Source of the DNA: Oscillospiraceae bacterium
GTDB lineage: Bacteria > Bacillota > Clostridia > Oscillospirales > Oscillospiraceae
DNA length: 64,000 bases
NCBI GenBank assembly: GCA_048201935.1
Contig: DBFBGR010000024.1
Coordinates: forward strand, 41,322 to 105,321
Reading direction: 5' to 3'
Numbering within the stretch: the stretch's first letter is position 1; the number at the start of each line of letters is the position of its first letter. Shown here in pieces: positions 1-57,343 of the stretch. Below the pieces are notes generated by a model. That model did no database searches, was not told the origin of the DNA, and worked only from the letters and a program-made list of their open reading frames with translations. The position numbers were made by a program, and so were the translations under genes.

Positions 1-1
1 C

Positions 2-298
2 TTGGCGGATAAGGAAAACGACTACGTCCGTGTGACCCTCACCGGCGAGTCCGAGCCTCTGGACCTGCCCGCTCTGCGCACACGGCTGGAGCCCCTTTGC
101 CGGGTGCTGGAGCTCCGGGACGAGACCGTGCCGCCCCTGGACCTGTGGGCCAGGGCCGGGGAGGACACCCTGACGGGCCACTTCGTCCGGGAACTGCGCG
201 CTCGGTTGGACAACGCCGACGAAGCCGACAAGCCCCGGCTGCTGGCCGCCCTGCGCTGGGGCCTGGCCGCATTGGAGGGAAGGGAGGGTCCCCAATGA
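2..298 (+). CDS. 3' end of a YhaO/SbcD-like DNA-repair exonuclease (metallophosphoesterase) gene; 5' end outside the window
   Basis: Open frame enters from the window edge. Its TGA (296-298) overlaps the ATG (295) of the following SbcC/YhaN-like ATPase (ATGA coupling). Product assigned from this conserved gene pairing only; no catalytic motif lies inside the window. Confidence 0.4.
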   Translation: MADKENDYVRVTLTGESEPLDLPALRTRLEPLCRVLELRDETVPPLDLWARAGEDTLTGHFVRELRARLDNADEADKPRLLAALRWGLAALEGREGPQ

Positions 299-2103
299 AC
301 ATCCTCTCTATGACCGCCACCTTCGGCTGCCTGGACCAGGCCACGCTGACCCTCCATGAGGGGCTCAACCTGCTGGAGCTGCCCAACGAGAGCGGCAAAT
401 CCACCTGGTGCGCCTTTCTCCGGGCCATGCTCTACGGCCTGGAGAGCCGCAAGGGCGGCGCGCTGTCCGAGCGCAACCGCTACACCCCCTGGTCCGGGGC
501 CGCCATGAGCGGCAGTATGGACCTTGTTTGGCAGGGAAAAGCCATCACCCTGCGCCGCTTCGGCAAGGGGTCCAATCCCTTCGGCGGCTTCCAGGCGGTA
601 TACACCGGCACCGAGGAGGCCGTCCCCGGCCTCACCGCCGACAACGCCGGGGAAATGCTGCTGGGCGTGACCAAGGAGGTCTTCCAGCGCACCTGCTTCA
701 TCCCCCAAGGCGGGCTCCAGGTGGACCAGTCCGGCGACTTAGAGCGCCGTGTGGCCGCCCTGGCGGCCTCGGGGGAGGAGGACGTATCCTACTCCGACGC
801 GGAAAAACGCCTGCGAGACTGGCGCAACCAGCGCCAGTCCAACCGGGCCAACGGTACGCTGCCCAAGCTCCGCACCCAGCTTTCGGAGGTCCAGGCCCAG
901 CGCCAGCGGCTGCTGGACGCCCGGGCCAAGGGGACCCAGGCCCAGAGCCAGCTGGAGAGCCTGGAGACCGAGCTACAAGAGGTCGGGCAGGACCTGGCCC
1001 GACACGAGCGCGCCGCCCAGGCCCAGCGCGCCGCCGACCAGCGAGAGCGCTACGAGCGCGCCGCCCAGCGGCTGGCCCAGGCAGAGGACGCTCTGGCCCA
1101 AGCACAAGCGGAGGAGTCACAGGCCCGGAGCGCCGTGCCCCCGGAGCCCGGCAACGGCTGGGCGGGACGGCTGGCCCTGAGCTTGACGCTACTGGCCGGG
1201 TGCGCGCTGATGGTGTGCGCCGTGGTCTTCTCCCTGTGGCCCCTGGCCCTGGGGGGACTGTCCCTGCTGAACATCGGGGCCCTGGGCACCCATCTGCTGA
1301 ACAAGGCCCGCAAGGCCGCCCAGGCCGCCTTTGACCAGGCCCGGGCCGCTCTGACCGCGGCCCAGGAAAAGACCCAGGCCGCTCAGGCTGAACACATCGC
1401 CGCCCAGGCCGCCTGGGAGGCCATCTCCGCTCAGGGTGAGCCCCCGGCCCCCGTGGCGGTGGACGACCAGCCCCGCCGCGCGCTGGCCGACGACCAGCTT
1501 TGCCAGCGGCGGCTCACCGAGGCCGTGGCCCTGTGCCGGGCCCAAATGGCCCGGTCCCAGGGCGAGGAGGAGGCCCTGGGCGGGCTGGCTCCCATGGACG
1601 AGACCGAGCGGGCTCTCACCGAGCGTATTGCCCAAGAGGAGGAGGAGCTGGCCGCGCTGGAGCTGGCTCTGGAAGCCTTGGACGCGGCCAACGCCAGCTT
1701 ACGTTCCCGGTTCTCCCCGGCGCTGAACGCCCAGGCCGGGGCCATTTTGAGCCGCCTCACCGGCGGGAAATATACCGCTTTGACCTTTACCCGGGCCTTC
1801 GAGGCCCTGGCCCAGACCCCCGCCGGGGCCCGCTCGGCCCAGCTTTTGAGCCAGGGCACCGCCGACCAGACCTATCTGGCCCTGCGGCTGGCCCTGTGCC
1901 GCCTGGCCCTGAGCGGAGACGACACGCCGCCGGTGGTGCTGGACGACGCGCTGGTGTGCTTTGACGATACCCGGCTGGCCCTGGCCCTGGAGGTGCTGGG
2001 CGAGCTGGCCCGGGAGCGGCAGGTCCTGCTCTTTACCTGCCAAAGCCGCGAGCGGCTTGCAATTTCCCAGCGGAACCCTTATAATGATGGCGACATATCT
2101 TGA
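295..2103 (+). CDS. SbcC/YhaN-like AAA/ABC-type ATPase with coiled coil and a central membrane hairpin
   Basis: ATG 295 is preceded by GGAGGGAAGGGAGG. Walker A-like LELPNESGKSTW near the N-terminus, long Q/A/E/R-rich coiled coil, two hydrophobic helices (LALSLTLLAGCALMVCAVVFSLWPLALGGLSLL), C-terminal Walker B-like VVLDDALVCFDD. The ORF-track start at 97 adds a P/G/R-rich extension and was not used. Confidence 0.7.
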   Translation: MNILSMTATFGCLDQATLTLHEGLNLLELPNESGKSTWCAFLRAMLYGLESRKGGALSERNRYTPWSGAAMSGSMDLVWQGKAITLRRFGKGSNPFGGFQAVYTGTEEAVPGLTADNAGEMLLGVTKEVFQRTCFIPQGGLQVDQSGDLERRVAALAASGEEDVSYSDAEKRLRDWRNQRQSNRANGTLPKLRTQLSEVQAQRQRLLDARAKGTQAQSQLESLETELQEVGQDLARHERAAQAQRAADQRERYERAAQRLAQAEDALAQAQAEESQARSAVPPEPGNGWAGRLALSLTLLAGCALMVCAVVFSLWPLALGGLSLLNIGALGTHLLNKARKAAQAAFDQARAALTAAQEKTQAAQAEHIAAQAAWEAISAQGEPPAPVAVDDQPRRALADDQLCQRRLTEAVALCRAQMARSQGEEEALGGLAPMDETERALTERIAQEEEELAALELALEALDAANASLRSRFSPALNAQAGAILSRLTGGKYTALTFTRAFEALAQTPAGARSAQLLSQGTADQTYLALRLALCRLALSGDDTPPVVLDDALVCFDDTRLALALEVLGELARERQVLLFTCQSRERLAISQRNPYNDGDIS

Positions 2104-2121
2104 GTTTGGAGGGATACCCAA

Positions 2122-2733
2122 ATGATCCCCGAGCGTGAAGAAACATCCAAAAAGAAGGAAGCGGACCAGCCCCAGCCCATGTACCGGCCCCAGGGCCTGG
2201 CCCAGAGCTTTACCGCCGGTCTCTACGGCTGGCTCCAGCCCATTTTGTTTGCCCTGGCGGTGCTTTTCGTGGTGTCCACCTTCCTGGGCCGCCTCATCGG
2301 CGTGGACGGCTGCTCCATGGTGCCCACCCTCCACGACGGCGATATGCTGCTGCTGCGTAGCATTGGCTACGACCCTGCCCCCGGAGACGTGGTGGTGCTG
2401 GCCGAGGAGTCCTTCCGGGACGGCTCGCCCATCGTCAAGCGGGTCATTGCCACCGCCGGACAGCGTGTGGACATCGACTACGACGCCCACACCGTGTCCG
2501 TGGACGGCAAGGTCCTCGACGAGCCCTACCTGGACCCGGGCGACCCCATGGTGGCCAAGCACGAGGCGGTGAACAACCACCTCACCGTCCCCGACGGGCA
2601 CATCTTCGTCATGGGGGACAACCGCAACAACTCCACCGACTCGCGCTACGCCGAGGTGGGCATGGTGGACGAGCGGTGCGTCATCGGCCAGGCGGTGTGG
2701 AGCCTGAAGCCCTTTGGGAGGATCGGCGGATGA
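2122..2733 (+). CDS. lepB: signal peptidase I
   Basis: GGAGGG RBS 8 nt upstream of the ATG. N-terminal TM helix. Catalytic boxes GCSMVPTL (Ser), VKRVIATAGQRV (Lys) and GDNRNNSTDSRY. Confidence 0.9.
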   Translation: MIPEREETSKKKEADQPQPMYRPQGLAQSFTAGLYGWLQPILFALAVLFVVSTFLGRLIGVDGCSMVPTLHDGDMLLLRSIGYDPAPGDVVVLAEESFRDGSPIVKRVIATAGQRVDIDYDAHTVSVDGKVLDEPYLDPGDPMVAKHEAVNNHLTVPDGHIFVMGDNRNNSTDSRYAEVGMVDERCVIGQAVWSLKPFGRIGG

Positions 2734-2978
2734 GACTGGATAAATGGCTGAAGGTCTCCCGGCTCATCAAGCGCCGCACCGTGGCCAACGAGGCCTGCGA
2801 CAACGACCGCGTCTGGGTCAACGGCAAGCCCCAGCGGGCCTCCTATGACGTAAAGCTGGGGGACGTGATCGACCTGCATTTCGGCCAGCGTGTCACCCGG
2901 GTAGAGGTGCTGGCCATCGACGAGCACGCGCAGAAGGACGAGGCCGCGGCCCTCTACCGGGAGCTGGGCGGCGGATAA
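2730..2978 (+). CDS. small S4-domain RNA-binding protein (Hsp15/YaaA-like)
   Basis: ATG overlaps the lepB stop (ATGA). MRLDKWLKVSRLIKRRTVANEACDNDRVWVNGKPQRASYDVKLGDVI is a typical S4 alpha-L motif. Confidence 0.75.
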   Translation: MRLDKWLKVSRLIKRRTVANEACDNDRVWVNGKPQRASYDVKLGDVIDLHFGQRVTRVEVLAIDEHAQKDEAAALYRELGGG

Positions 2979-3009
2979 GTCCGCCGTTTCATTCCTTAGG
3001 AGGGATAGC

Positions 3010-3615
3010 TTGACCCAACGCAAGACCGCCCTGGGGACCTACGCCATCATGGCCTTGGGGTCCTTCATCCTGGCCTTTGGGCTCTATAATATCCACGTTC
3101 AATCCGGCGTGACCGAGGGCGGCATCTTAGGCGCCACCCTTCTTTTTCGCCACTTTTTCAGCCTGTCGCCCAGTATCAGCGAGATCGTGCTGGACCTCAT
3201 CTGCTACTTAGCGGCCTTTCGGGTACTGGGCAAGGGCTTTGCCAAAAACGCCATCATCTCCACGCTGCTCTACGCCGGCTTTTACGCCATTTTGGAGCAG
3301 TTTCCCCCCGTGGTCCATGATCTTTCCGCCTACCCCTGGCTGGCGGCGGTGCTGGGGGCGCTGTTCGTGGGCGTAGGCGTGGGGTTGGTGGTGGGCGCCG
3401 GCGGCGCCTGCTGCGGCGACGACGCGCTGGCCCTGACCATCTCCAAGCTCACCGGCTGGGACGTGGGGCGGAGCTACTTTATCACCGACCTCACTGTCCT
3501 CACCCTGTCGCTGAGCTATATCCCGCCTGCAAGGCTGGTGTGGTCGCTGCTCAGCGTCACCCTCTCCTCGGCCATCATCAGCCTGATGCAGCGGCCTAGG
3601 GAGGCGTTAACGTGA
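3010..3615 (+). CDS. YitT/YczE-family integral membrane protein
   Basis: TTG start 5 nt after AGGAGGG. About 5-6 hydrophobic helices; the N-terminus (ALGSFILAFGLYNIHVQSGVTEGGILG) resembles the YitT/YczE family. An ATG at 3049 is an alternative start. Confidence 0.55.
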   Translation: MTQRKTALGTYAIMALGSFILAFGLYNIHVQSGVTEGGILGATLLFRHFFSLSPSISEIVLDLICYLAAFRVLGKGFAKNAIISTLLYAGFYAILEQFPPVVHDLSAYPWLAAVLGALFVGVGVGLVVGAGGACCGDDALALTISKLTGWDVGRSYFITDLTVLTLSLSYIPPARLVWSLLSVTLSSAIISLMQRPREALT

Positions 3616-4268
3616 AAAAGTCCCTGCTGGACCTGCTGTTTCCGCCCCGGTGTCCCTTCTGCCGCAAGGTGCTGGAGACCGAGACCATCTGCCCCGACTG
3701 CCAAAAGGGCCTTCCCTGGCTGGTGGGCCGCCGGGCCCAGCGGTTTCCCGAGCACGTGGAGCTGTGCGTCTCGCCCCTTGGCTACGAGGGTCTGGTCCGT
3801 GGCTGTATCCACCGCTACAAATTTGGCCGCCGCCGTGGCTACGTCCGGGTGCTGGGCCCTTTATGCGCCCAGGCAGTCCAGGACCACATGGCCCAGCAAC
3901 GCTTTGACCTCGTCTCCTGGCCGCCGCTGTCGGCCAAGGGCCTGAAGAAGCGGGGCTTTGACCAGGCCCGGCTGCTGGCCCAGGCCGTGGCCCAGAGCCG
4001 GGACATGACGGAAACGCCCCTTTTTCGCAAAGCTGAGACCGCCCAGCAATCCGCCCTCCGGGCTCCGTCGGCCCGGAGGGCCAACGTGCTGGCGGCCTTT
4101 ACCCTTTTAGACCCCGCGCTGGTGGCGGACAAGTCCATTTTGCTGGTGGACGACGTAGTCACCTCGGGCTCCACGTTGTCCGAATGCGCCCGGGTGCTGC
4201 TCACCGCCGGGGCCCGGGAGGTGTGGGCGGTGACGTTGGCCTCGGCCAAGGGGCACGAGTGCGCATAA
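3612..4268 (+). CDS. comFC: ComF-family protein (phosphoribosyltransferase-like, competence ComFC)
   Basis: GTG overlaps the upstream stop (GTGA). N-terminal zinc-finger Cys pairs (CPFC...CPDC) and C-terminal PRT motif ILLVDDVVTSGSTL. Confidence 0.85.
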   Translation: MKKSLLDLLFPPRCPFCRKVLETETICPDCQKGLPWLVGRRAQRFPEHVELCVSPLGYEGLVRGCIHRYKFGRRRGYVRVLGPLCAQAVQDHMAQQRFDLVSWPPLSAKGLKKRGFDQARLLAQAVAQSRDMTETPLFRKAETAQQSALRAPSARRANVLAAFTLLDPALVADKSILLVDDVVTSGSTLSECARVLLTAGAREVWAVTLASAKGHECA

Positions 4269-4362
4269 AAAGCTTGCAAAACACGCCGCTGTCGGATATA
4301 ATAGCGGAAGTGGCATTTTCATCCGACGACACAATACGTGGAACATACAAGAGGTGCAAAGA

Positions 4363-5385
4363 ATGTTTAGTAAAGATATCGGCATCGACCTGGGTACCGC
4401 CTCCGTTCTGGTCTTCGTCCAGGGCAAGGGCGTGGTGCTCCGGGAGCCCAGCGTGGTCGCCATCGACCGCAACTCCGGCCGCCTTCTGAAGGTGGGCGAG
4501 GACGCCCAGCAGATGCTGGGCCGCACCCCGGGCAACATCGTGGCCATCCGGCCTTTGCGCGAGGGCGTTATCTCCGACTACGACATGACCGAGCGCATGC
4601 TCCGGGAGTTCATCCACAAGGTCTCCACCTTCCGCATCTTCAAGCCCCGGGTGGTCATCTGCGTCCCCTCGGGCATCACCGAGGTGGAGGAGCGCGCCGT
4701 CATCGACGCGGGCATCCAGGCCGGCGCCCGGAGAGTGTACCTCATCGAGGAGCCTCTGGCCGCCGCCATCGGCGCGGGCATCGACATCACCAAGCCCGAC
4801 GGCCACATGGTGGTCGACATCGGCGGCGGCACCACCGACATCGCCGTCATCTCCCTCAGCGGCATCGTGGAGTCCGCCTCCATCAAGATCGCCGGCGACC
4901 AGTTTGACGAGGCGGTGGTAAAATACATCCGCCGCAAGCACAACGTCCTCATCGGTGAGCGCACCGCCGAGGAGCTGAAGAAGGAGATCGGCTGCGTCTT
5001 CCCCCGGCCCGAGGAGCAGAGCGTGGAGGTCAAGGGCCGCTGCCTGGTCACCGGCCTGCCCAGGGTGTTCACCGTCACCTCTTCCGAGATGATCGAGGCC
5101 TTCGAGGAGGTCTCCACCCGCATCCTGGAGGCCATCCACGGCGTTTTGGAGCGCACGCCCCCCGAGCTGGTGGCCGACATCTCCACCAACGGCATCGTTA
5201 TGACCGGCGGCGGCAGCCTGGTCTGGGGCTTTGATAAGCTCATCGAGAGCCACACCGGCATCGCCACCCACGTGGCCGACGACGCCATCTCCTGCGTGGC
5301 CTACGGCACCGGCAAGAGCCTGGAGTGGGTCAATGACATGCAGGACGGCACCATGAACATCTCGAGACAGAAGCAGATGAACTAA
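4363..5385 (+). CDS. mreB: rod-shape-determining actin homologue MreB
   Basis: AAGAGG RBS 8 nt upstream of the ATG. MFSKDIGIDLGTASVLVFVQGKGVVLREPSVVAI, DIGGGTTD and MTGGGSL actin-fold motifs. Confidence 0.95.
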   Translation: MFSKDIGIDLGTASVLVFVQGKGVVLREPSVVAIDRNSGRLLKVGEDAQQMLGRTPGNIVAIRPLREGVISDYDMTERMLREFIHKVSTFRIFKPRVVICVPSGITEVEERAVIDAGIQAGARRVYLIEEPLAAAIGAGIDITKPDGHMVVDIGGGTTDIAVISLSGIVESASIKIAGDQFDEAVVKYIRRKHNVLIGERTAEELKKEIGCVFPRPEEQSVEVKGRCLVTGLPRVFTVTSSEMIEAFEEVSTRILEAIHGVLERTPPELVADISTNGIVMTGGGSLVWGFDKLIESHTGIATHVADDAISCVAYGTGKSLEWVNDMQDGTMNISRQKQMN

Positions 5386-5387
5386 GG

Positions 5388-5527
5388 AAGCGCGAGGGTA
5401 GGCGCGCCGGGGACGATGGAGCGGCGACAGGCCAAAAGCAGGCGAACGCCGTAGGCGTGAGCGGCATTTTGGCCGCGCAGCCGCGAAGCGACCCCGACAA
5501 GCGCGCCCAACCCGAGCGTGACAGCCC
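5388..5527 (+). repeat. copy 1 of a ~140-nt GC-rich structured intergenic element (3 copies in window)
   Basis: Starts 2 nt after the mreB TAA. Differs at only 2 positions from 55473-55613 and is clearly homologous to the reverse complement of 48495-48629. Folds as a nested rod: GGCGCGC 5401-5407/GCGCGCC 5501-5507, GGGG/CCCC, GCGGC 5421-5425/GCCGC 5480-5484, GGCCAAAA 5430-5437/TTTTGGCC 5467-5474, ACGCC-GTA-GGCGT 5446-5458. Confidence 0.85.
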
Positions 5528-5538
5528 ATAAACACAGC

Positions 5539-5573
5539 AAAAACGGCGGCCCCAAGTGGGGCCGCCGTTTTTC
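5539..5573. terminator. bidirectional intrinsic terminator between mreB (+) and metK (-)
   Basis: AAAAACGGCGGCCCC-AAGT-GGGGCCGCCGTTTTT: an 11-bp GC stem flanked by an A-run and a T-run. Confidence 0.85.
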
Positions 5574-5588
5574 TCGGTTTTTTCGGCG

Positions 5589-6770
5589 TTATCGAGCCGC
5601 CTTCAAAGTCTTCGCCATGTCGGTGCGCTCCCAGGGGAGGTCGAGATCCGTGCGGCCAAAGTGGCCGTAGGCGGCGGTCTGGCGGTAGATGGGCTTGCGA
5701 AGGTCCAGCGTCTCGATGATCTTGGCCGGGCGGAGGTCGAAGTGGGCCTTGACGATCTCTGCCAGCCGCTCATCGCTGACCGCGCCAGTGCCGTAGCTCT
5801 CCACCAGCACGCTGACGGGGTTGGCCACGCCGATGGCGTAGGCCACCTCGATCTGGCAGCGGCGGCACAGACCCGCGGCCACCAGGTTCTTGGCGATGTA
5901 CCGGGCCATGTAGGCGCCACTGCGGTCCACCTTGGTGGGGTCCTTGCCGCTGAAGCAGCCGCCGCCGTGGCCGGCCACGCCGCCGTAGGTGTCCACGATG
6001 ATCTTCCGGCCCGTCAGGCCGGTGTCGCCCACGGGGCCGCCCACCACGAAGCGTCCGGTGGGGTTGATGAAGAGCTTGGTGTCCTGGTCCAGATAGCCTT
6101 CGGGGATGGCGGGGCGGATGATGGTCTCGGTGACGGCCTGGCGCAGCTCCTTGAGACCGATGTCCGGGTCGTGCTGGGTGGAGACCACGATGGCGGGGCA
6201 GCGGAGGACCTTACCCTCGCTGTCATACTCCACGGTGACCTGGCTCTTGCCGTCGGGCCGCAGCCAGCTAAGCTCCCCGCTCTTGCGGGCCTGGGCCAGC
6301 CGCCGGGTCAGGGCGTGGGCCAGGGCGATGGGGGCGGGCATCAGCTCCGGGGTCTCGTCGCAGGCGTAGCCGAACATCATCCCCTGGTCCCCGGCGCCCA
6401 CCACGTCGGCGGGGTCGCTACCGCCGTTTTGGTGCTCATAGGACTGGTTCACGCCCATAGCGATGTCCGGGGACTGGGCGTCGATGGCGGTCATGACGGC
6501 GCAGGAGCGGTAGTCAAAGCCGTATTCGGGGTCGGTGTAGCCGATGTCCTGGATGGTCTTGCGGGCGATGGCGGCGATGTCGCAGTAGTGCTGGGTGCTG
6601 ATCTCGCCCATGACGGTGACCATGCCGGTGGTGGCGAAGGTCTCGCAGGCCACGTGGGCCTGGGGGTCGTGGGCCAGGATGTCGTCCAGCACGGCGTCGG
6701 AGATCTGGTCGCAGAGCTTGTCGGGATGGCCCTCGGTGACGGATTCTGAGGTGAAAATGCGATTGCTCAT
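5589..6770 (-). CDS. metK: S-adenosylmethionine synthase
   Basis: [41 protein letters not shown] and [19 protein letters not shown] signature motifs. The start at 6770 is preferred over the ORF-track 6800. Confidence 0.95.
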
Positions 6771-6798
6771 GGTTTTCTTCCTTTCTTTTTTGAGGCAC

Positions 6799-6920
6799 AA
6801 AAAAGCGCTCCGGCAGGAGCGCCCGCGTCCCTCCTTATCGTTGTCAGCGGAACCACCTTGCTTGACGCAGGTTGGTGTGGGGTCATGGAGCTGACTCTCT
6901 CGCCCACTCTTGATAACGGG
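6799..6920 (-). promoter_or_regulatory. SAM riboswitch (SAM-I-like core, apparently without a P4 hairpin) plus terminator, metK leader
   Basis: Minus-strand RNA: GUUAUCAAGAGUGGGCGAGAGAGUCAGCUCCAUGACCCCACACCAACCUGCGUCAAGCAAGGUGGUUCCGCUGACAACGAUAAGG. P1 is UUAUC/GAUAA; AAGAG, CCAACC...AAGGUGG (P3) and UUCC match SAM-I landmarks. Followed by GCGCUCC-UGCC-GGAGCGC-UUUUUU (plus 6800-6823) just upstream of the metK RBS. Confidence 0.75.
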
Positions 6921-7061
6921 GTATATTCAGTTGTTAAAAGTTATTCTACAATACCCGGCGAAAAAAGTCAAGCCCTGAAAAATTCATCCTTTCGCTATGG
7001 ACTTCCTTTCAAAAATGGGCTACAATAGGTACAATATTTCCCCACGAGAGGAGCGGCGCGG

Positions 7062-7937
7062 ATGCGAAGCGTAGATTCCTGGCTGGACCGGTTTGCCTTC
7101 AACCACCCCAAATTCGGCATTCCCCATCTGATGAACCTGATCATCATTGGGAATGTGCTCGTCTTTATCCTGGATATGTGCTCCAACGGCGCGGCCACCC
7201 TTCTGCTGGGCCTCTCTTTCCACGCCATTGGGGCGGGCGAGGTGTGGCGGCTGGTCACCTTTATCTTTGTCCCCGACTCCTTCCGGCCCCTGTGGTTCGT
7301 GGTGAGCATCTTCTTTTATTACTTTCTGGGCAACACCATGGAGCGGGAGTGGGGCACGGCCAAGTTCTCCCTGTTCTACCTCTGCGGGACACTGCTCACC
7401 ATGATCGCCGGGGCCGTGGTCCAACTGGGCTTTGGCATCCCCTATGTAATCACCCTGGGCTCGGTACATCAGACGCTGTTTCTGGCCTTTGCCACGCTGT
7501 TTCCCGAAGCCCCCATGCGGTTCTATTTTATCATCCCCATCAAGGCCAAGTGGCTGGCGCTACTTTACTTCATTATGGAGATCTGGTCGGTGCTGGGAGT
7601 GAACCGGCTCTTCCTCCCCCTGATCCTCCCCTTGGTCTTGCCCACCCTCATCGCCGCGTGGATCAACTACCTGCTGTTCTTCTGGACGCCGGTGAAAAAC
7701 CTGGTGAACCGGGCCTTTGGCCGGGCCAAGCACCAAAGCTCCAAGCAGACGGTGAACTTCAAGGCCGCCCAGAAGAAAGCCAAGGAGACGAAGGGCTACC
7801 TCCACAAGTGCGCCGTCTGCGGCAAAACTGACGCCGACGACCCCAATATGGAATTCCGCTACTGCTCCAAGTGCGACGGCTATTACTGCTACTGCATGGA
7901 CCACATCAACAACCACGTCCACGTCAAGGAGAGCTGA
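7062..7937 (+). CDS. rhomboid-like polytopic membrane protein with C-terminal Cys/His zinc-ribbon tail
   Basis: About 6 TM helices; the GEVWRLVTFIFVP motif resembles the rhomboid WR..T..F.H box. Cytoplasmic tail HKCAVCGK...YCSKCDGYYCYCMDHINNHVH is Cys/His-rich. Confidence 0.5.
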   Translation: MRSVDSWLDRFAFNHPKFGIPHLMNLIIIGNVLVFILDMCSNGAATLLLGLSFHAIGAGEVWRLVTFIFVPDSFRPLWFVVSIFFYYFLGNTMEREWGTAKFSLFYLCGTLLTMIAGAVVQLGFGIPYVITLGSVHQTLFLAFATLFPEAPMRFYFIIPIKAKWLALLYFIMEIWSVLGVNRLFLPLILPLVLPTLIAAWINYLLFFWTPVKNLVNRAFGRAKHQSSKQTVNFKAAQKKAKETKGYLHKCAVCGKTDADDPNMEFRYCSKCDGYYCYCMDHINNHVHVKES

Positions 7938-37123: not shown

Positions 37124-40100
37124 TCAGGACGTGGTGTACTTCCACGCCCACTTGGCCTCGCACTCCGCCTTACATGTGGCGTCGTCGGGCAGCTCAGAGA
37201 GACTGTCACGGTGGATCAGCGCGTACTGGAACTGGTACCAGCTAGGCTCCTTGATGAGGGCCAGAGAGCTGGAGTCGATGTAGTCCCCGCCGTTGGCGCA
37301 CATGGAGATGGCGTCCATGGTGGTGATGATCATATCCATGGCGTCTGGGTTCCCCGCGAACAACTCCGCCGCGGTGATCACCGTGCCCGCGTCGTCACCG
37401 CGCAGCAACAGGGTGTCCTTCACCACGCTGTCATCCACCACAAAGGTGAACTCGCTGGCGTCCCACAGCTCATAGTAGGCTCCCGCCGACTGCATAAAGC
37501 TGCTCCAGGTCCCGGCGTCCACCGGGATCTCCGTCTTGTCGCCCGGATCGGGCTGCTCTCCGCCGCCTCCGCCACTGGTGTCATACTTCCAGTCCCACTT
37601 GGCCTCGCACTCCGCCTTACACGTGGCGTCGTCAGGCAGAATGGTCAGGCTGTCGCGGTGGATCAGCGCGTACTGGAACTGATACCAGGTAGGCGCCTTG
37701 ACAAGCGCCAGGGAGCTCATGTCGATGTAGTCCCCGCCGTTGGCGCACATGGAGATGGCGTCCATGGTGGAAATGACCAGGTCCATGGCGTCCGGGTTGC
37801 CTGCAAACAGCGCGCTGGCGGTGATCACCGTGCCCGCGTCGTCAGAGCGCAACAGCAGGGTGTCCTTGACGATGCTGTCGCTCAACGGGAAGGTAAACGC
37901 GCTGGCGTCCCACAGCTCATAGTAGGCGCCTGCCGAGCGCATAAAGTCGTTCCAGGTCCCCGCGTCCACCGGGATCTCCGTCTTGGTGGTCTCCTCGGGG
38001 GGCTCAGGGGGATCGGGGTCCTCTCCGCCGCCTCCGCCGCCGGTGCCGTACTTCCATTCCCACTTGGCCTCGCACTCCGCCTTGGCCGTAGCCTCGTCAG
38101 GTACCTCTGCCAGATTGTCCCGGTGGATCAGACAGTACTGGAACTGGTACCAGCTTGGCTCCTTGATGAGGGCCAGGGTACTGGAGTCGATGTAGTCCCC
38201 GCCGTTGGCGCACATGGAAATGGCGTCCATGGTGGTGATGATCATATCCATGGCGTCCGCGTTCCCCGCAAACAGCTCCGCCGCGGTGATCACCGTGCCC
38301 GCGTCGTCACCGCGCAGCAGCAGGTTGTCCTTCACCACCGTATCATTAAAGGGCGAGAAGGTAAAGGCCGCAGCGTCCCAGTTCTCATAGTAAGACCCCG
38401 CCGATTGCATAAATTTGCTCCAGGTGGTGGGGTCCACCTTGATCTCCGGCTTGGAGGGCGTGGGCGGCTCCTCGCCGCCGCTGGAGGTGCCGTATTTCCA
38501 GTCATACTTCTCCGCGCACTCCGCCTTGGCCTCCGCGTCGGTGGGCACCTTGGCCAGGCCATCCCGATGGATCAGGCAGTACTGGAACTGATACCAACTC
38601 AGAGGCTTCTTCAAGTCCAGGGTACTGGAGTCGATGTAGTCCCCGCCGTTGGCGCACATGGAAATGGCGTCCATGGTGGAGATGATCATATCCATGGCGT
38701 CCGGGTTCCCCGCGAAGAAGTCACTGGAACGGATCTCCGCCCCCGCCTCGTTGGCCCGCAGCAGAAGCACGTCCCGGATCACCTTGTCGTTGATGGGCGA
38801 GAAGGTGAAGGCGCTGGCGTCCCAATCCCGGTAGTAGGCCCCCGCCGATGTCATAAAGTCGTTCCACTTGGCCTCGTCCAGGGGCAGCTCTTCCTTTTCC
38901 GGAGGAGGCGGCGTGGGCGGGGTCTCCCCGGAGTCGTATTTCCACTCATACTTGTTCTGACACTCCGCCTTGGCCTCCGCGTCGGTGGGCACCTTACCAA
39001 GACTGTCCCGGTGGATCAGACAGTACTGGAACTGATACCAGCTCAGCTCCTTGATAAGGTCCAGTGTGCCCGGGTCGATGTATTCGCTGCCGTTGCTGCT
39101 CATGGCAATGGCGTCCATGGTGGAGATGATCATATCCATGGCGTCTGGGTCACCCGCAAAGAAGTCACTGGCGCGGATCTCCGTCCCCGCGTCGTCCAAA
39201 CGCAGCAACAGCTCGTCCCGGATGACCTTGTCATCCAAAGGCGAGAAGGTAAAGGAGCCGGCGTCCCAATCCCGGTAATAGGCCCCCGCTGACTGCATAA
39301 AGTCGCTCCACTGAGCCGGGTCGATGGGCTTTTCCTTCCGCCCGCCCGGCTCAGGCTTGCTGTCCAGCGTGAACCACCAATAGCTGTCCACCGGGTTTTC
39401 CGGGTCGGTGGTGTCGATGACCTCCGCCTTCACGTCGTCATCCGATTTATATGCGCCGCCCAGCAGCATATACTGCAGTTGGTAATTGGTCATGCTGGTG
39501 GCCTGGTCGTAGGTGATACCCGACTTCAGCACCGTCTCCAGCACCGCCAGGAAGGAGTCCACATCGGCAAACTCCGCGCCCTCGCTGTCGCTGCGCAGCG
39601 CAAGGCCAGTCCCCCGCTTGTTGATGAAGTCCACGCTCTGGGGCATCTCATCCAGCGCACGGTCCGTGGTGGTCCCCGCGCCGTCGCCCACGTAATAGAG
39701 CCAGGCGGCCTTCAAAAGGCTCTCCTGGTCGGTGATGGCAGGGCCTCCCTCCCCCTGCCACCAGTAGCTATCCGGGATGCTGGCGGCGGGAAGGTAGGTG
39801 TTGGCGTTCAAAATGGCGTACTGCAGCTCCTTGGCCAGGTCCGCCTCACTCTTGGTCCCTACAGTAGCGCTGGTGTAGGGGAAATTCGCGATGGCGTCCA
39901 GCACGAGCTGCTTCGCCTGGGCCGGGGTAGTGGCGGACGGGTAGGGGATGCCCCGCTCATCCTTCCAGATGCCCAGGTCGGTCAGATCCTGGACCGTCAA
40001 CTTGTCCAGCGCCGTGGACAGCAGCCCCTCCTTCACCCACAGCCCGGCGGTGAAGAGGTCGGTGATGCTCTCGATGTCCATGGGCTGGCTGGGGCTGCCC

Positions 40101-43100
40101 CCGTCCTTCCACCAGTAGTCGATACTGGGGTCGGCCAAAATGGCGTTCTTGTCCGGCTGGGTGACGCCGCCCCCCAGGTCCTTATAGTTCAGCAGCAGCC
40201 ACTGGAACTCCTCCCACTCCATGGTGAGGGTCTGGCCATCGTCGCCAAAGAACTTGGGGTCGCTGCCGCTAGTATACAGGGCCACCAGTGCGTCCAGCGC
40301 CACGCTCTTAAAGTCGTCCACGCTGTCAAACTTGCCCATGGGGTCGGTCTTGCGGAAATAGAACTCATTGTTGATGAGGCCGATCCCGTCCTCCAGGAGC
40401 TCGTTCAGACTGGTGTCCGAGCCGGTAAAGCCATACTCGCTCACCGCCGCCAGCAGGTCCTCCAGCTTCACCGCCGGCTCCCCGCCGTCGTTCCAGTAGA
40501 GGTCCTTGCCCTTCAGCGGGCCCTCCGCTGTGCCGCTGGTCTCCGCCTCGATGTCGGCCGGGCTCTTGTATGTCCCGGTCATCACCGCGTACTGCAGCTC
40601 CTCCCAGGATATCAGCTTGAGCTTGTCCACGCTGTCATATCCGCCGCCGCCGGCGCTCTTGGGCTTGGCCAGTACCTCCAGAGCCTTCTTCCAGGCCGTG
40701 GCGAACTCGTCGGCGTCGGCAAACTTCACCGCCTCGTCGTTGCTGTCCAGCTCCTTGCGCAGCCAGCCCATGTCCGCGTAGTCCCCGGTCTCCATCCCCT
40801 CCACGTGCCCGCCGATCATCCAATCCAGCTGGGTGGGGGTGACGTTGGCCGCGGTAAAGTTCTCAAAGGCGTGGGGCACCTTGGCGTCCGGCGTCCCATC
40901 CCCGTTCATGTCCACGCCCACATACTCCAGATAGGAGTACTTCAGCACCTCTTCCCAGGTCGCGGGGGTAGGCGGCGTGCCATAGGGCTTGCCGGGACTG
41001 GGCTCCCACCAGATATTCAGCGTGGCCGGAGCGCTGGCGCCCATGCGGTTGTAGATGATCTCCTCCTGGACCTGGCTCCAGGTCACCGTGGTCCAGTCCG
41101 GGTCCGCCCCCAGGGTGGGGGCCAGGGAGGCCACCGCATCGTCCAGGTCGTCCAAAATAGCCTGCTTCAGCGCCGCGTCGGTGGTGGCGCTGTCGTAATC
41201 ATAGGGCACGCCGTCGGCCTGCATCCGGTAGCCAAAGCCGTTGAGGAAGGAGGCCGTCACCCCCGTGGTGGTGGTCCCGTTGCCGTAAAGGGCGTCGTAG
41301 GCCTTTTTGTAGTCGTTGCTGGTGGTAGGCTTGGTCTGGATCATATAGAGCGCCGTCAGCACGTCGCTGGCGGTGTTGATCTCCATCTTGATGTCCCCCA
41401 CGCAGTTGTCCATCCGGCACCAGGTAAAGCCCGCGCAGGCGCTGTCGCTCATCAAATTGGTCCCGTCAAAGATGCCGTTGGGATTCCCCGCGGCGCACAT
41501 GACAATATGCCGCTGGAGCTGATGCCAGGTCAGCTCCACGTTGCCCTTCTTGTTGTAGATCCCCGCCGGAGCGGTGGCCGGGTCCGGGTAGGCCGCTACG
41601 ATGGCGTCCACCAGATTCTGCGTATAGGTGACACACCGGGTGCGGTTGAGCGCGGTAATTGCGCTATTCTCATCCAGTTTGAGGTTCAAATCGTTAATGG
41701 TCGCCAAGGTCATCGCGGTGGAGAGCTGGCTCGTGGTATCTCCTCGGGCAGCGGCGGTGGCCACCTCCATGAGCTGGTGAAGGGTCCCCTGGGTGACAAA
41801 TCCGTCCGTCCCCTGCCGCTCCTCGTAGGGCACGCTGTCCCCCGAGCCGTCCACCTTTTCGTAGTCAAAGTTGTTCTTCAGATTCAGCTCCCCGCCGTTA
41901 GACCGGTGCTCACCTGTGACAATATTATAGCCCTCATAGTGGTCCACGAGAACATAATCCACTCTCCAAATTACGCCGCCGGCGGTCAGGTCGATGTCCA
42001 TGAGGTCCTTGTTGTAGGCGATGTTCTTCACGTAAAACGCCTTGGTGTCCGTGGAGGGGTCCAGATCCTTGTCCTCGGTGTCAAAGGCGTTCACGTCGTA
42101 GGTCAGGCCCGCCTGCACCGCCGGGTCCCGGGTCCGCCGCACCCCCTGCCAGTCCCCGTAGAGGTCGGTGGCCCGCTGGTACTGGTACTGAAAGGAAAAG
42201 GTGGAATCCTGGGTGGAGGCGTTGTAACCGTACCGGGTCACATAGAGGCTATTGTCCACCGTAGTATACATTTCGTCCGGCAGCAGGTCAGCCCCCGGCT
42301 CATACACCGCCTTGACAATGAGCACATCCTGGCCCGGTTTGAGCAGGCTGTCAAAGTCGCTAAAATCAGCAAAGCGCAGATACCGGCTGGCATCCGCACT
42401 GGAGGTTTTATAGTCATAATGGCTGGGGCTGGTCAGAGCCGCCGACAGTCCCCCAGGCTGGAACTCGATAGTCCCCCCAGGCAGGGCCTGCACCGGCGAG
42501 CCCTTGTCGGTATAGTTCGGCTCGTGCGTACCCAGTTCGCCTGCGCCAAAGGTGGTCCAGGTGTTCTCCGTCTTCACCGAGTCCTTCAGGACCTCCCAGT
42601 TCTCCCCCGCCACCTCGATCTTGGTGTTGGCCGGGTCCTCCACAATGGCCCAGCCGTAGATATACGGATACTTCCCCGCCTCCGGGTCGTCGTTGGGCTT
42701 GGCCACGGTGTAGTACTTCTCCACCGTGTCCTTGTCCATGTTGGTGGGGTCGGCGGGGTCGGGGGTGCGCAGGGTGTTGACGATGTTCATCCGCTTGTAG
42801 AACACATAGTCCAGCTTGTTGGTCAAGGGATAGTCGTCCCCGTTGGCCACCTTCAAAGCGTCGCCGCCGTTCAACTGATAGGGATACTTGGAGCCGCGGT
42901 AATTGAACTCCCGGTCCAGGGTGTTCACCACGTTTTCGTAGTTCGCCAGTGCGGTGGGGTCGGTGGGCAACTCGCCGCCGTTCAAATACTGGCTGGCCCG
43001 CAGGTCGGGGTGGATGAAGTTGCGCTCCACGTAGGAGTTGACATCCTTGCGCACGTCGCCGCCCTTGACCACCTGGGCGCCGATGAGTTCGTCGGTGTAG

Positions 43101-44551
43101 TCGTAGTAGAGGATAATGAACTTGCCGCCATCTCCGCGGGGCGCACGGAAGGTGGGGGCGTTCACCATCTTCAGCTTCAATCCACGGCCCTCGGCGGGGC
43201 CATCCAGGTAGAGCAAATTGCTGTAATAGCTGTACCCCGCGCCGGTCTGGGGGTTCTCCTGGTCGCCGTGGCCCAGGACCTTCACGCCCTGGGTGGAGGG
43301 AATGCGGATGTGCTCCACATCCTGGATACCCGTAGGCGTGGACACGCTCACCGTGCCGTCGGGGTCGGAGGCGTCAGAACCCGCCACGGCGTTGGCGCCG
43401 AGGTAGTAATAATATTCCGTTTGGGTCCAGTCCACCGGGGCCCCGGCGGTATCCTTGCTGGAGAGTTTGGTCCATACCGTCTGGCCCGCCTCGGTGGCGG
43501 CGGCCAGGCCGTCGGAGTATGCAAAATTGCCGCCCTGGGCGGTGTCGGCCAGCCAAGTCAGCGGCGTCTTGCCGTCGTTGAGGAGATAGGCGTTGGCCCG
43601 GTCCAGGCCCAGCCAGAAGCCCTCAGGCTTGGCGGCGTCGTTCTCGCCGGTGATCTGATGGTTGATATTGGCGTTATTGTAGGCGGCGTTGACCATGACG
43701 GTGTTCTTGGGGAAACGCTTGAGGTCATAGCTAAACCGGACCACCACCACAGGGGTGGAGGTCTTGAACACCACAGGCTTATTGTCCGGCGCGTGAGCCG
43801 ACAAGGTCACCAGCGCCGTTTTGGTGTTGGTGGCGGTATCCTCGTAGTACTGGTCCACCTGGGCCGCCGCGGTAAAGGCGCTGCGGTCCCCCTCGGCGTC
43901 CAGGGCGATGGCGTTGGGCCGGGGCTTCTGCAGCGTGGCCTGGGTCACGTCGGGGAAGGGGTCGGGGTCGGCGGGGCCCCACACCTCGGGATCCACGTTA
44001 TCTGCCAAAACAATGCCCCTGGGATAGGCGGCATCCTGGTCGGCGTAGCTGGCGCCGTCCCACTCGCTGTATGTAACAGACTCCACGTCCCAGTGGACCG
44101 CAGTGAGGACATCGGTATTGACCCCCACCACCGCCGAGGCGGCGGAGAAGGGATAGTAGGTCACGGTATAGTCGGTCTCGGCCACCCCGGCAGTCCCGGT
44201 CTCGATATCGGCCAGAGCCTGGGCATACTCCGCCTCAGAGAGCTCCTTTTCCGAGCCGGTGGCATAACCGGCTGCAGGGTCGGGGCCATAGATGCGCCGG
44301 GGCGAGCGGACGCACAGGGCCAGCTCGTAGAAGCCCGTAGGCGCGCCGTTGTCGTCCACCACCACATTGCCTTGGATGGTGACCTCAGGCTTGTTCTGGA
44401 GCGTTGCCTGGGGGATCACGCCGTGATCGGCCGCGGCCAGGGCAGGCGTGGCAAACAGCAGGGCGGCCAACAACAGCGCCAGCAGGCCTCCGGTCCTCGG
44501 AAGCCTCTGCCGCAACGCGTTCCATATGCAGTTGAGTTTCTGTGTCCGCAT
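37124..44551 (-). CDS. 2475-aa secreted protein; C-terminal half built from a ~150-aa Trp/Cys-containing repeat of unknown family
   Basis: ATG 44551 lies after AGGTGAGGG. Signal peptide ...GGLLALLLAALLFATPALAAA. No SLH, LPXTG or TM anchor seen. Five near-identical C-terminal repeats plus at least 6 degenerate ones sharing W-x2-(L/F)Q(Y/W) and YWW motifs. Confidence 0.85.
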   Translation of the reverse strand: MRTQKLNCIWNALRQRLPRTGGLLALLLAALLFATPALAAADHGVIPQATLQNKPEVTIQGNVVVDDNGAPTGFYELALCVRSPRRIYGPDPAAGYATGSEKELSEAEYAQALADIETGTAGVAETDYTVTYYPFSAASAVVGVNTDVLTAVHWDVESVTYSEWDGASYADQDAAYPRGIVLADNVDPEVWGPADPDPFPDVTQATLQKPRPNAIALDAEGDRSAFTAAAQVDQYYEDTATNTKTALVTLSAHAPDNKPVVFKTSTPVVVVRFSYDLKRFPKNTVMVNAAYNNANINHQITGENDAAKPEGFWLGLDRANAYLLNDGKTPLTWLADTAQGGNFAYSDGLAAATEAGQTVWTKLSSKDTAGAPVDWTQTEYYYYLGANAVAGSDASDPDGTVSVSTPTGIQDVEHIRIPSTQGVKVLGHGDQENPQTGAGYSYYSNLLYLDGPAEGRGLKLKMVNAPTFRAPRGDGGKFIILYYDYTDELIGAQVVKGGDVRKDVNSYVERNFIHPDLRASQYLNGGELPTDPTALANYENVVNTLDREFNYRGSKYPYQLNGGDALKVANGDDYPLTNKLDYVFYKRMNIVNTLRTPDPADPTNMDKDTVEKYYTVAKPNDDPEAGKYPYIYGWAIVEDPANTKIEVAGENWEVLKDSVKTENTWTTFGAGELGTHEPNYTDKGSPVQALPGGTIEFQPGGLSAALTSPSHYDYKTSSADASRYLRFADFSDFDSLLKPGQDVLIVKAVYEPGADLLPDEMYTTVDNSLYVTRYGYNASTQDSTFSFQYQYQRATDLYGDWQGVRRTRDPAVQAGLTYDVNAFDTEDKDLDPSTDTKAFYVKNIAYNKDLMDIDLTAGGVIWRVDYVLVDHYEGYNIVTGEHRSNGGELNLKNNFDYEKVDGSGDSVPYEERQGTDGFVTQGTLHQLMEVATAAARGDTTSQLSTAMTLATINDLNLKLDENSAITALNRTRCVTYTQNLVDAIVAAYPDPATAPAGIYNKKGNVELTWHQLQRHIVMCAAGNPNGIFDGTNLMSDSACAGFTWCRMDNCVGDIKMEINTASDVLTALYMIQTKPTTSNDYKKAYDALYGNGTTTTGVTASFLNGFGYRMQADGVPYDYDSATTDAALKQAILDDLDDAVASLAPTLGADPDWTTVTWSQVQEEIIYNRMGASAPATLNIWWEPSPGKPYGTPPTPATWEEVLKYSYLEYVGVDMNGDGTPDAKVPHAFENFTAANVTPTQLDWMIGGHVEGMETGDYADMGWLRKELDSNDEAVKFADADEFATAWKKALEVLAKPKSAGGGGYDSVDKLKLISWEELQYAVMTGTYKSPADIEAETSGTAEGPLKGKDLYWNDGGEPAVKLEDLLAAVSEYGFTGSDTSLNELLEDGIGLINNEFYFRKTDPMGKFDSVDDFKSVALDALVALYTSGSDPKFFGDDGQTLTMEWEEFQWLLLNYKDLGGGVTQPDKNAILADPSIDYWWKDGGSPSQPMDIESITDLFTAGLWVKEGLLSTALDKLTVQDLTDLGIWKDERGIPYPSATTPAQAKQLVLDAIANFPYTSATVGTKSEADLAKELQYAILNANTYLPAASIPDSYWWQGEGGPAITDQESLLKAAWLYYVGDGAGTTTDRALDEMPQSVDFINKRGTGLALRSDSEGAEFADVDSFLAVLETVLKSGITYDQATSMTNYQLQYMLLGGAYKSDDDVKAEVIDTTDPENPVDSYWWFTLDSKPEPGGRKEKPIDPAQWSDFMQSAGAYYRDWDAGSFTFSPLDDKVIRDELLLRLDDAGTEIRASDFFAGDPDAMDMIISTMDAIAMSSNGSEYIDPGTLDLIKELSWYQFQYCLIHRDSLGKVPTDAEAKAECQNKYEWKYDSGETPPTPPPPEKEELPLDEAKWNDFMTSAGAYYRDWDASAFTFSPINDKVIRDVLLLRANEAGAEIRSSDFFAGNPDAMDMIISTMDAISMCANGGDYIDSSTLDLKKPLSWYQFQYCLIHRDGLAKVPTDAEAKAECAEKYDWKYGTSSGGEEPPTPSKPEIKVDPTTWSKFMQSAGSYYENWDAAAFTFSPFNDTVVKDNLLLRGDDAGTVITAAELFAGNADAMDMIITTMDAISMCANGGDYIDSSTLALIKEPSWYQFQYCLIHRDNLAEVPDEATAKAECEAKWEWKYGTGGGGGGEDPDPPEPPEETTKTEIPVDAGTWNDFMRSAGAYYELWDASAFTFPLSDSIVKDTLLLRSDDAGTVITASALFAGNPDAMDLVISTMDAISMCANGGDYIDMSSLALVKAPTWYQFQYALIHRDSLTILPDDATCKAECEAKWDWKYDTSGGGGGEQPDPGDKTEIPVDAGTWSSFMQSAGAYYELWDASEFTFVVDDSVVKDTLLLRGDDAGTVITAAELFAGNPDAMDMIITTMDAISMCANGGDYIDSSSLALIKEPSWYQFQYALIHRDSLSELPDDATCKAECEAKWAWKYTTS
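37127..39328 (-). repeat. five in-frame tandem coding repeats, period ~444-465 bp (~134-aa core + Gly/Pro/Glu linker)
   Basis: The landmark CCGCCGTTGGCGCACATGGA(G/A)ATGGCGTCCATGGTGG recurs near 37290, 37737, 38202 and 38646, with a diverged copy near 39095. Protein unit: W.(D/S/K)FM.SAGAYY..WDA..FTF......V.D.LLLR...AG..I....(L/F)FAG.(P/A)DAMD.(I/V)I.TMDAI(S/A)M(C/S).NG..YID...L.L.K..(S/T)WYQFQY.LIHRD.L...P..A..KAEC..K(Y/W).WKY. Confidence 0.9.
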
Positions 44552-44608
44552 TGCCCTCACCTGCGTTTCTCGTCAGCCTTTTCTAGCCGCTCTGCCTATC
44601 GTCTCGTC

Positions 44609-47008: not shown

Positions 47009-47055
47009 AAAATATAGCAAAAAGCAGACTCGCCCGCTTTTTCCCGCGGACGAGT
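47009..47055 (-). terminator. intrinsic terminator after prfB
   Basis: GCAGACTCG (47014-47022) pairs with CGAGTCTGC (47041-47049), with an inner CCGC/GCGG helix. T-run on the minus strand, A/T runs on both sides. Confidence 0.75.
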
Positions 47056-47085
47056 CTGCTTTTTCTTGATAACAGGGAGATTTCC

Positions 47086-48207: not shown

Positions 48208-48267
48208 GGTTTCACACAACTCTCAAAATAGGATCACAGGATATTATATCCAAAATCAGCTCTCGCG

Positions 48268-48477: not shown

Positions 48478-48494
48478 ATATACCTCCGTTGTTG

Positions 48495-57330: not shown

Positions 57331-57343
57331 AAACCGTCAACCG

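Follow-up and report, generated by a model that had tools for sequence, protein, structure and literature searches.

The element considered here is a G+C-rich hairpin of about 140 nucleotides (nt) found at gene ends in three places within a 64,000-nt stretch of DNA from an Oscillospiraceae bacterium (GenBank assembly GCA_048201935.1, contig DBFBGR010000024.1, positions 41,322 to 105,321 of the forward strand; hereafter, the window). These three copies belong to a large, undescribed family of hairpin repeats of uncultured mouse-gut Clostridia. The explanation favored here, held with moderate confidence, is that each copy is a unit of a clade-specific, polar hairpin-repeat family of ~130-145 nt whose lifestyle resembles that of repetitive extragenic palindromes (REPs), bacterial interspersed mosaic elements (BIMEs), and REP doublets forming hairpins (REPINs). 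An effect of the unit at the level of RNA is very likely but is judged secondary in importance.

A conserved hairpin in three copies and many relatives

Exactly three copies are present in the window according to a covariance model (R1, run with filters off), which scores them at 155-160 bits and gives its next best match only 11.5 bits. Copy 1 (5387-5525, plus strand; 158 bits), running from GAAGCGCGAGGGTAGGCGCGCC to GCGCCCAACCCGAGCGTGACAGC, and copy 2 (55473-55611, plus strand; 160.5 bits) are both of subtype A1 and differ at only 2 of 141 positions, 5413 (A/G) and 5438 (G/A). Copy 3 (48491-48629, minus strand; 155 bits), an intercistronic unit of subtype A2, is ~80% identical to the other two and shows compensatory changes relative to both. 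That this similarity is not due to chance follows from the gap in covariance-model scores together with the counts for the 19-mer GATGGAGCNNCGACAGGCC, which has three exact matches in the window and, with up to three mismatches allowed, four matches where 0.54 are expected. An earlier, sequence-only reading of the window had located the same three copies, the limits of which are refined here, but had exchanged two labels: the near-identical pair that it called copies 1 and 3 is in fact the pair on the plus strand, and the helices that it quoted for a divergent copy 2 belong to the minus-strand copy at 48491-48629, which is the divergent one. Every window copy folds as a nested rod of ~55 bp (-74 to -80 kcal/mol; z-scores between -4.2 and -6.0), and the pairing-preserving double substitutions that the same reading had described between copies are real and recur in wider alignments.

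The extent of the family beyond the window is indicated by several types of searches. In species-representative genomes, an exact-pattern scan found the element in one metagenome-assembled genome only, "uncultured Clostridiales bacterium ERR1305900-bin.47," one contig of which is syntenic with window positions 1-7109 at ~85% identity. Among metagenome contigs, a degenerate pattern of the two ends recovered 47 loci from about 20 assemblies, and cmsearch and nhmmer on related loci (designated below by L numbers) gave 105 hits, representing 68 distinct full-length sites and ~69 distinct unit sequences with lengths of 127-144 nt. Exact-protein look-ups of S15 and YlmH led to contigs, apparently of the same species, in which the arrangement is as in the window, and these place the species in mouse-gut samples; the corresponding look-ups of MreB and RNase Y found no record. 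On viral contigs, 120 loci returned by a loose, ends-only pattern were all chance matches by nhmmer, and a stricter ends pattern identified one real prophage contig. No blastn match to the element was found among GenBank phages or PLSDB plasmids.

Comparison with Rfam, proposed earlier as a check, likewise revealed no known family that matches. At the gathering threshold, the S-adenosylmethionine (SAM) riboswitch is the sole Rfam 15 match in the whole window; at E<=10 in the region 5300-5620, the unit is overlapped only by a chance-level match to BTH_s1 (13.5 bits, as compared with a gathering score of 74), with the other matches located on a terminator and its flank. In twelve array-containing loci only tRNAs were matched, and full-text literature searches, made both with the end sequences and for similar clostridial repeats, turned up no earlier account of the family.

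All units share their ends, 5'-GAAGCGCG(A/G)AG and (G/C)AGCGTGACA(R)C-3', which pair as a basal GCGC/GCGU stem. In most units the left arm includes (G/C)(G/A)TAGGCGC and the right arm GCGCCCAA(C/T)(C/G)CGAGCGTGACA, and most also contain a UGGA(G/C)//GAA(G/A) internal loop and an AAAA/UUUU helix. The interior is a rod of five helices that differ between subtypes by compensatory changes, with purine-rich internal loops, GA/GA and UGGA/GAAG, that are conserved across subtypes. Assignment of the UGGA/GAAG loop as a K-turn or loop-E motif was weighed by eye and not adopted; the loop departs from the canonical K-turn layout. Viewed as a whole, the unit is one long imperfect inverted repeat, the consensus ends of which match at about 15 of 22 positions in a manual alignment; a self-palindrome, GGCGCGCC, is present in some subtypes only.

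The pairing has been retained across extensive sequence variation. In a model-fitted alignment of the units, standard pairs occupy 91% of cells and both partners vary in 31 of 34 pairs; none of 500 shuffles reached the observed pairing values, and in controls with slid partners pairing falls to 25-44%. A separate MAFFT/RNAalifold alignment of 17 units contains 16 compensated pairs. Taken together, these statistics and controls indicate that the hairpin is under constraint, so that the conserved, covarying rod suggested earlier from three copies is now documented extensively in two independent alignments. The character of the pairing is nonetheless unusual. Setting the basal G·U pair apart, the well-aligned helices comprise 1383 Watson-Crick cells, 23 G·U cells, and 26 A·C cells (1.6% versus 1.8% for the last two), so that G·U is tolerated no better than A·C, which is unusual for RNAs under structural selection. 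Further, 34 of the 67 apical loops tabulated are GNA triloops (GCA 15, GAA 13, GTA 6) rather than GNRA or UNCG loops, and the stability of C(GNA)G triloops is exceptional in DNA and lower in RNA.

Translation of the repeat, or a role as a read-through extension of the preceding protein, was considered and rejected on three grounds: the position of the stop codon relative to the unit varies, frame 1 closes at a conserved TAG after four codons, and the periods of the arrays described below are not multiples of three throughout.

Gene ends, turnover, and what they favor

The placement of the units was counted at 55 independent first-or-solo sites, using open reading frames (ORFs) with coding-type G+C content at third codon positions. 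At 34 of the 55, a unit lies against the stop codon of an ORF with the same orientation, as compared with 1 of 55 in the antisense control. The offset of the unit from the stop is 0 at 13 sites, +1 at 6 sites, where the G of the unit completes a TAG, and +3 at 4 sites, where TAA or TGA takes the place of GAA; offsets of -4 or -5 are found at five sites and of -1 and +9 at one site each. At four additional sites (+15), the ORF runs into the unit and stops at its conserved TAG. On the downstream side spacing is free, at 9-15 nt to a separate terminator or 1-40 nt to a Shine-Dalgarno sequence, and a few units come after terminators or upstream of a co-oriented gene. The unit does not itself qualify as an intrinsic terminator, as no U tract directly follows its GUGACARC end. 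The sense orientation relative to the upstream gene that had been claimed from the window copies thus holds for the family. Equal frequencies in the two orientations, which the sequence-only reading had named as pointing to a repeat at the level of DNA, are not what is seen (34 versus 1), and the RNA reading as a whole survives the observations by which its author had proposed to judge it.

Some ORFs, including those for PSP1/YaaT and an ABC-F ATPase (L166 3506 (-), L166 1655 (-), L168/L191), end at the TAG of the unit or at a GCGTGA variant of it. The proteins encoded by ORFs reading into units in this way gain three or four unit-encoded residues (...EARG), and their C termini are ones that gene callers will mis-set.

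The orientation of the units changes with that of the local gene over distances of a few kb, as seen in the window and in L002, L175, and L201, and is therefore not set by the replication strand. The genes upstream have no function in common, encoding MreB, RNase Y, YlmH, RlmH, thiolase, Pta, a PfkB kinase, ABC-F, PSP1, DAHP synthase, terminase, portal, and major head proteins, which rules out a specific regulon or a riboswitch-like regulator. Nor is protein coding a requirement. In a tRNA operon (L161 3280-4091), genes for Gly, Arg, His, and Gln tRNAs are followed by two units at 3686-3949 and then by the Lys tRNA gene, with the first unit starting 1 nt after the CCA end of tRNA-Gln, an arrangement that raises the question of tRNA 3'-end maturation. 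In an IMG/VR prophage contig (L220 800-4440; IMGVR_UViG_2897530398_000005), units come directly after each of three genes, one unknown and the others those for the portal and major head proteins, giving a gene-unit-gene-unit order. Units also directly follow a prophage terminase gene at L181 950-2000, and phages may carry the family between hosts. A simple TAA/TAG/TGA target is unlikely: where no ORF ends at the unit, such a triplet is present close to the junction at 11 of 21 sites by our own count, as compared with an expectation of ~36%.

Units occur alone or in direct tandem arrays of 2-7 joined by purine-rich linkers of 1-6 nt. A single unit is present at most loci, two- and three-unit arrays are common, and the distal units of arrays are often truncated. 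In one array the unit-plus-spacer periods are 134, 141, and 138 nt. At the L181 locus, rlmH is followed by 4-5 units and the terminase gene by ~7, with at least four subtypes mixed. Arrays of this type might be read as precursors of trans-acting small RNAs, cut at GUGACA-nn-GAAGCG junctions into hairpins of ~135 nt. Their direct arrangement, short purine-rich linkers, invariant junctions, and interiors that vary between conserved ends are what such precursors would exhibit. Yet the interiors are almost fully paired, with little sequence free for targeting, no associated protein gene accompanies the arrays, and a solitary unit is the rule at most loci, so that this is the least probable of the explanations considered.

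Comparison of orthologous loci, in which the flanking housekeeping genes are syntenic with those of the window (L038, L162, L174), illustrates how units are gained, lost, and exchanged. The rpsO-pnp spacer of the window (57331-57489, plus strand) contains no unit, whereas three orthologous loci that are 86-88% identical have one unit directly after the rpsO TAA (57331-57333) and another before the pnp Shine-Dalgarno sequence; the latter, in the pnp leader, comes after "gttcaagtgcTAA", which ends at window position 57453. The empty and filled junctions are TAA^AAACC versus TAA-unit-AATGCC at rpsO and TAA^AACGG versus TAAgag-unit-ACGCGG at the pnp leader. The pnp 5' leader also includes a short motif, GGTTCAAGTGCTAA (window 57400-57456; L174 7520-7548), that is conserved between the 86-88%-identical genomes and reads in L174 as a mini-ORF, ATG TTC AAG TGC TAA; units insert right after this motif in relatives. 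Similarly, the 3' end and flank of the release-factor gene of the window (gene 47086-48219; region 47040-47088, minus strand) are without a unit, whereas the L162 ortholog has two tandem units directly after its TAA. At the copy 3 site, the ortholog has one extra codon, a TGA stop, and an unrelated spacer of ~100 nt in place of the unit. This spacer (L162 3445-3530, minus strand) is G+C-rich, has hairpins of its own, and could represent a different repeat family.

Where a site is occupied in more than one species, the occupant may differ. The rny site holds a unit of subtype A in the window and of subtype B in a relative (L177), and at the pnp leader the units of L174/L195 and L201 have identical junctions around interiors that are 66% identical, as compared with 94% for the pnp genes themselves. 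In other cases the occupant is nearly the same: the mreB-site unit is 97.9% identical between two species in which the third codon positions of mreB are 80.6% and the downstream spacer 54% identical, and copy 2 is 99.3% identical to the mreB-site unit of the other species.

The exchange of interiors at identical junctions could suggest sites of integron-like or cassette-exchange recombination, in which folded single strands analogous to attC, one after each ORF, would allow a site-specific recombinase to swap or move DNA between units. Imperfect palindromes of 127-144 nt that start at an ORF stop and have conserved ends and a variable middle fit such a scheme, as does the gene-unit-gene-unit order in the prophage contig, and both the strand asymmetry described below and the GNA triloops fit a folded DNA strand. 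The scheme is improbable all the same, because the core sites of attC, RYYYAAC/GTTRRRY, are not matched by the ends, the units are flanked by housekeeping genes in synteny and not by cassettes (window versus L038, L162, L174), the arrays consist of units without ORFs between them, and no integrase gene was found beside any array in the inspected loci, in a scan that was not exhaustive.

A mobile, REP-like repeat is favored by a different combination of features: the gain, loss, and swapping of units, their decay and mixing within arrays, their presence at prophage and tRNA sites, the lack of a functional theme, near-identity to a master sequence, arms that are almost purely Watson-Crick, and an apex that is mostly a GNA triloop. 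So understood, the units would be non-autonomous repeats undergoing multiplication and turnover inside genomes, possibly spreading via a folded single strand that bears the sense sequence and is acted on in trans by a hairpin-specific enzyme or, alternatively, by gene conversion between the conserved ends. Once transcribed, a unit would form a very stable rod in a 3'-untranslated region (3'-UTR) or between cistrons, most plausibly serving as a 3'-exonuclease barrier or a processing site. By abutting a stop codon it may also hinder terminating ribosomes, as has been reported for E. coli REPs. These consequences for RNA would follow from the location of the repeat and would not be the reason for the existence of the family. 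Of the two origins entertained in the sequence-only reading, the structured-RNA family stands as regards the rod, its covariation, its sense placement, and the lack of an Rfam match, but not as a dedicated RNA gene or cis-regulator in the first instance; the alternative of a MITE (miniature inverted-repeat transposable element) was closer to the truth, except that the target duplication expected of a MITE is not evident at the two filled/empty comparisons.

The most substantial competitor, to which a rather low probability is assigned, is a cis-acting RNA module that is selected for a job at the RNA level and for which copying between loci is merely the means of spread. Candidate jobs include a barrier to 3'-exonucleases or to RNase Y/J, an RNase III-type processing site that separates cistrons, and the docking of a protein at the GA-rich loops. 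Several observations are to its credit and, in part, weigh directly against a mobile repeat. In addition to the 34 versus 1 bias in placement and the position of the unit upstream of a terminator or the next ribosome-binding site (RBS), folding favors the sense RNA over the antisense RNA in 66 of 69 units (means of -71.1 versus -64.2 kcal/mol, an average advantage of 6.9 kcal/mol), 85% of unpaired bases on the sense strand are purines, and conservation across subtypes extends from the GA/GA and UGGA/GAAG internal loops to the basal G·U pair, which is invariant in 59 of 59 units. The mreB-site unit is conserved far above the level of synonymous sites, and purifying selection on an RNA could be the alternative source of its 98% identity between species. 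The strand asymmetry has two possible bearers, as RNA and the non-template DNA strand cannot be separated from sequence because both carry the sense sequence. Countering the RNA module are the variety of genes upstream, with units even in a tRNA operon and among prophage genes, the orthologous sites that are empty in close relatives with no visible replacement, the truncated units within arrays, the scarcity of G·U, and the preponderance of GNA triloops over GNRA or UNCG loops.

Other points that count against a REP-like mobile repeat concern its polarity and its machinery. Strict polarity (34:1) and direct tandem arrays are atypical of REP/BIME or REPIN elements, and an orientation that follows the local gene speaks against the lagging-strand route of IS200/IS605-type elements. 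The two filled/empty comparisons, at rpsO and the pnp leader, reveal no target duplication beyond a possible single A. No transposase, REP-associated tyrosine transposase (RAYT), or other partner enzyme was found in the window and ~0.5 Mb of related DNA, the best match to a hand-written IS200 TnpA query having E=1.5 by tblastn in that related DNA. A scan of related loci for orphan 5' and 3' end motifs, aimed at an autonomous parent element, gave scattered matches, which are taken for chance, and no long element bounded by both ends.

Some of these difficulties would be lessened by a bolder proposal, which can be advanced only tentatively: that the family represents either a new mobile hairpin aimed at the exact 3' boundary of gene products or a gene-end RNA device needed by the host. 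In the first version, a boundary-directed element would target the stop codon or the CCA end of a tRNA, possibly by entering the non-template strand at the place of first release of the nascent RNA; in the second, the conserved GA-rich loops would be read by a dedicated protein. Either would account for the concentration of offsets at 0 and +1, for the strictness of the polarity, and for the 98-99% conservation between species.

Surroundings in the window and significance

The identities of the genes upstream of the window copies, given earlier as mreB, rny, and a ylmH-like gene, are supported by Pfam and by direct reading of the sequence. Copy 1 follows the TAA (5383-5385) of mreB (4363-5385, plus strand; PF06723 MreB_Mbl, E 2e-140) after a spacer of 1 nt and is itself followed, 13 nt downstream, by a bidirectional intrinsic terminator (5539-5572) that serves both mreB-plus-element (+) and metK (-). 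Copy 2 is separated by a 4-nt spacer, gatc, from the TAA (55466-55468) of rny (53915-55468, plus strand), which encodes RNase Y. Beginning 14 nt after it, between rny (+) and a convergent DEAD-box helicase gene (-), is a terminator-like hairpin (55626-55663), AAAAAAGAGACCATCTGC-gtg-GCAGATGGTCTCTTTTT, that was read by eye and is absent from the consensus terminator scan. Copy 3 starts with TAAGCGCG where other units have GAAGCGCG, and its first three bases are the TAA (48627-48629, minus strand) of the gene for a YlmH-like S4-domain protein (48627-49418; assigned by Pfam). The GGAGG Shine-Dalgarno sequence (48483-48487) of the DUF896 gene (48268-48477, minus strand; ATG at 48475-48477) starts 3 nt after this copy ends. 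Location between a stop codon and a terminator or the next RBS implies that the units are transcribed, in agreement with the earlier assignment of the element to a 3'-UTR or intercistronic segment.

Several other features of the window are recorded here in their own right. The SAM-I riboswitch (RF00162; 47.3 bits, as compared with a gathering score of 44.4) is located at 6832-6919 (-), directly upstream of metK (5589-6800, minus strand). A strong promoter-like match, TTGACG-17-TATAAT (11/12), lies at 48243-48271 (-), at the 3' end of the DUF896 gene and a short way upstream of the gene for the release factor. Giant ORFs, two in number and encoding 8307 and 2478 amino acids, occupy 12147-37070 (-) and 37124-44560 (-), their coding sense being assigned from codon-position G+C content, with long shadow ORFs on the plus strand opposite them; no Pfam domain was found in the first 3000 residues of the larger or anywhere in the smaller. 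Five tandem repeats of ~444 nt are present at 37137-39334.

To our knowledge, REP-type repeats have been well studied in Proteobacteria and hardly described in Clostridia. The family described here is abundant, with about one unit per 20 kb in the window and up to seven in a row elsewhere, and it surpasses REPs in size and in the elaborateness of its structure, is strictly polar, and is positioned with near base-pair precision at gene ends. It would therefore offer a clean system for understanding how hairpin repeats choose their sites and whether transcription exposes a target. The units also probably supply an uncultured gut lineage with 3'-UTR structures of great stability that influence the decay of its mRNAs, and they provide a practical marker for strain typing and, because gene callers extend ORFs into them, for genome annotation. 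If the family is only a selfish repeat, it is a useful catalogue entry and no more.

Likeness to known repeat systems

Folded elements placed after ORFs are represented by the attC sites of integrons, imperfect palindromes of 57-141 nt that follow an ORF stop, have conserved ends and a variable center, and function as one folded strand. The units share the position directly after an ORF stop, the conserved ends, and the variable interior. They differ in that the RYYYAAC ... GTTRRRY cores are absent, all unit ends being GAAGCGCG ... AGCGTGACA, and in that they are dispersed after housekeeping genes and not gathered in one array beside intI.

Mycobacterial interspersed repetitive units (MIRUs) reportedly share the orientation of the genes that flank them (Supply 1997). 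They are scattered through the intergenic regions of operons, frequently in direct tandem, with ends that overlap the adjacent genes (PMC3184786). The clostridial units are similar in forming direct arrays of 2-7 and in the overlap of stop codons with their 5' end. MIRUs, however, are 40-100 bp long and contain small ORFs coupled to, and in frame with, their neighbors, whereas the units have lengths not divisible by three and are closed in two of three frames; the sequences are not similar, and the host belongs to another phylum.

A third paradigm is provided by the MITE-type palindromes, which include Correia/NEMIS, ERIC, RUP, BOX, and bcr1 elements of 100-160 bp that form RNA hairpins in mRNAs and alter their stability or processing (PMC3733652). 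The units are comparable in size and fold as robust transcribed hairpins, but MITEs have target duplications and insert in either orientation, neither of which was found for the units. MITEs also have terminal inverted repeats matched to those of a cognate insertion sequence (IS); the ends of the units form an imperfect inverted repeat, and no longer element bounded by the same ends was found in the related loci.

REPs are defined as palindromes of 20-40 nt with a basal stem of 7-20 fully paired nt and a loop of 2-5 nt or an extra stem after a small bulge (PMC6006769, PMC3733652). By size and the requirement for a simple hairpin, the present family falls outside this formal definition, and it departs from it at least in part in the tag as well: REPs are simple stems, whereas the units are 127-144-nt rods with five helices separated by internal loops, and the unpaired GT[AG]G (or CGTC) tag found 0-2 nt from a REP stem has its nearest counterpart in a (G/A)TAG that is partly paired and covarying. 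This (G/A)TAG is directly 5' of the GGCGCGC stem, with another 11 conserved nt ahead of it; the first two of its bases are paired to the opposite arm, with covariation (pair 16-173: GC in 35 units, AU in 22). Additional differences are that BIME clusters alternate in orientation whereas the arrays of units are direct, that the units are strictly polar with transcription, that REP hosts are mainly proteobacterial whereas the present host is a member of the Clostridia, and that REPs are mobilized by RAYT/TnpA-REP, a Y1 HUH transposase encoded by a single-copy gene that the repeats flank, with no RAYT seen for the units in the DNA searched.

In lifestyle the resemblance is nevertheless considerable. 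Like REPs, which are high-copy, G+C-rich, extragenic palindromes, the units are repeated (three copies in 64 kb), exist as several subtypes per genome, and are transcribed and able to act as RNA hairpins. Most REPs occupy the spacers of unidirectional or convergent gene pairs, at distances below 20 bp from the 3' end of the ORF upstream, and a TAG stop is often contributed by their GTAG ends (PMC3733652), so that abutment to gene ends is known behavior of such repeats; the units lie at -5 to +15 from the stop, with four ORFs ending at the TAG of the unit. REPINs are symmetric, each arm being a REP palindrome, whereas the unit is polar, with conserved GA/GA and A/CA loops and ends that are not equivalent (5' GCGC-GA-GGGU-A-GGCG versus 3' CGCC-CA-ACCC-GA-GCGU). 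Yet the units share with REPINs a long hairpin, on the order of 100 nt, whose arms are conserved and whose middle varies and, as described for REPINs, the grouping of near-identical copies around a master sequence and persistence across related species.

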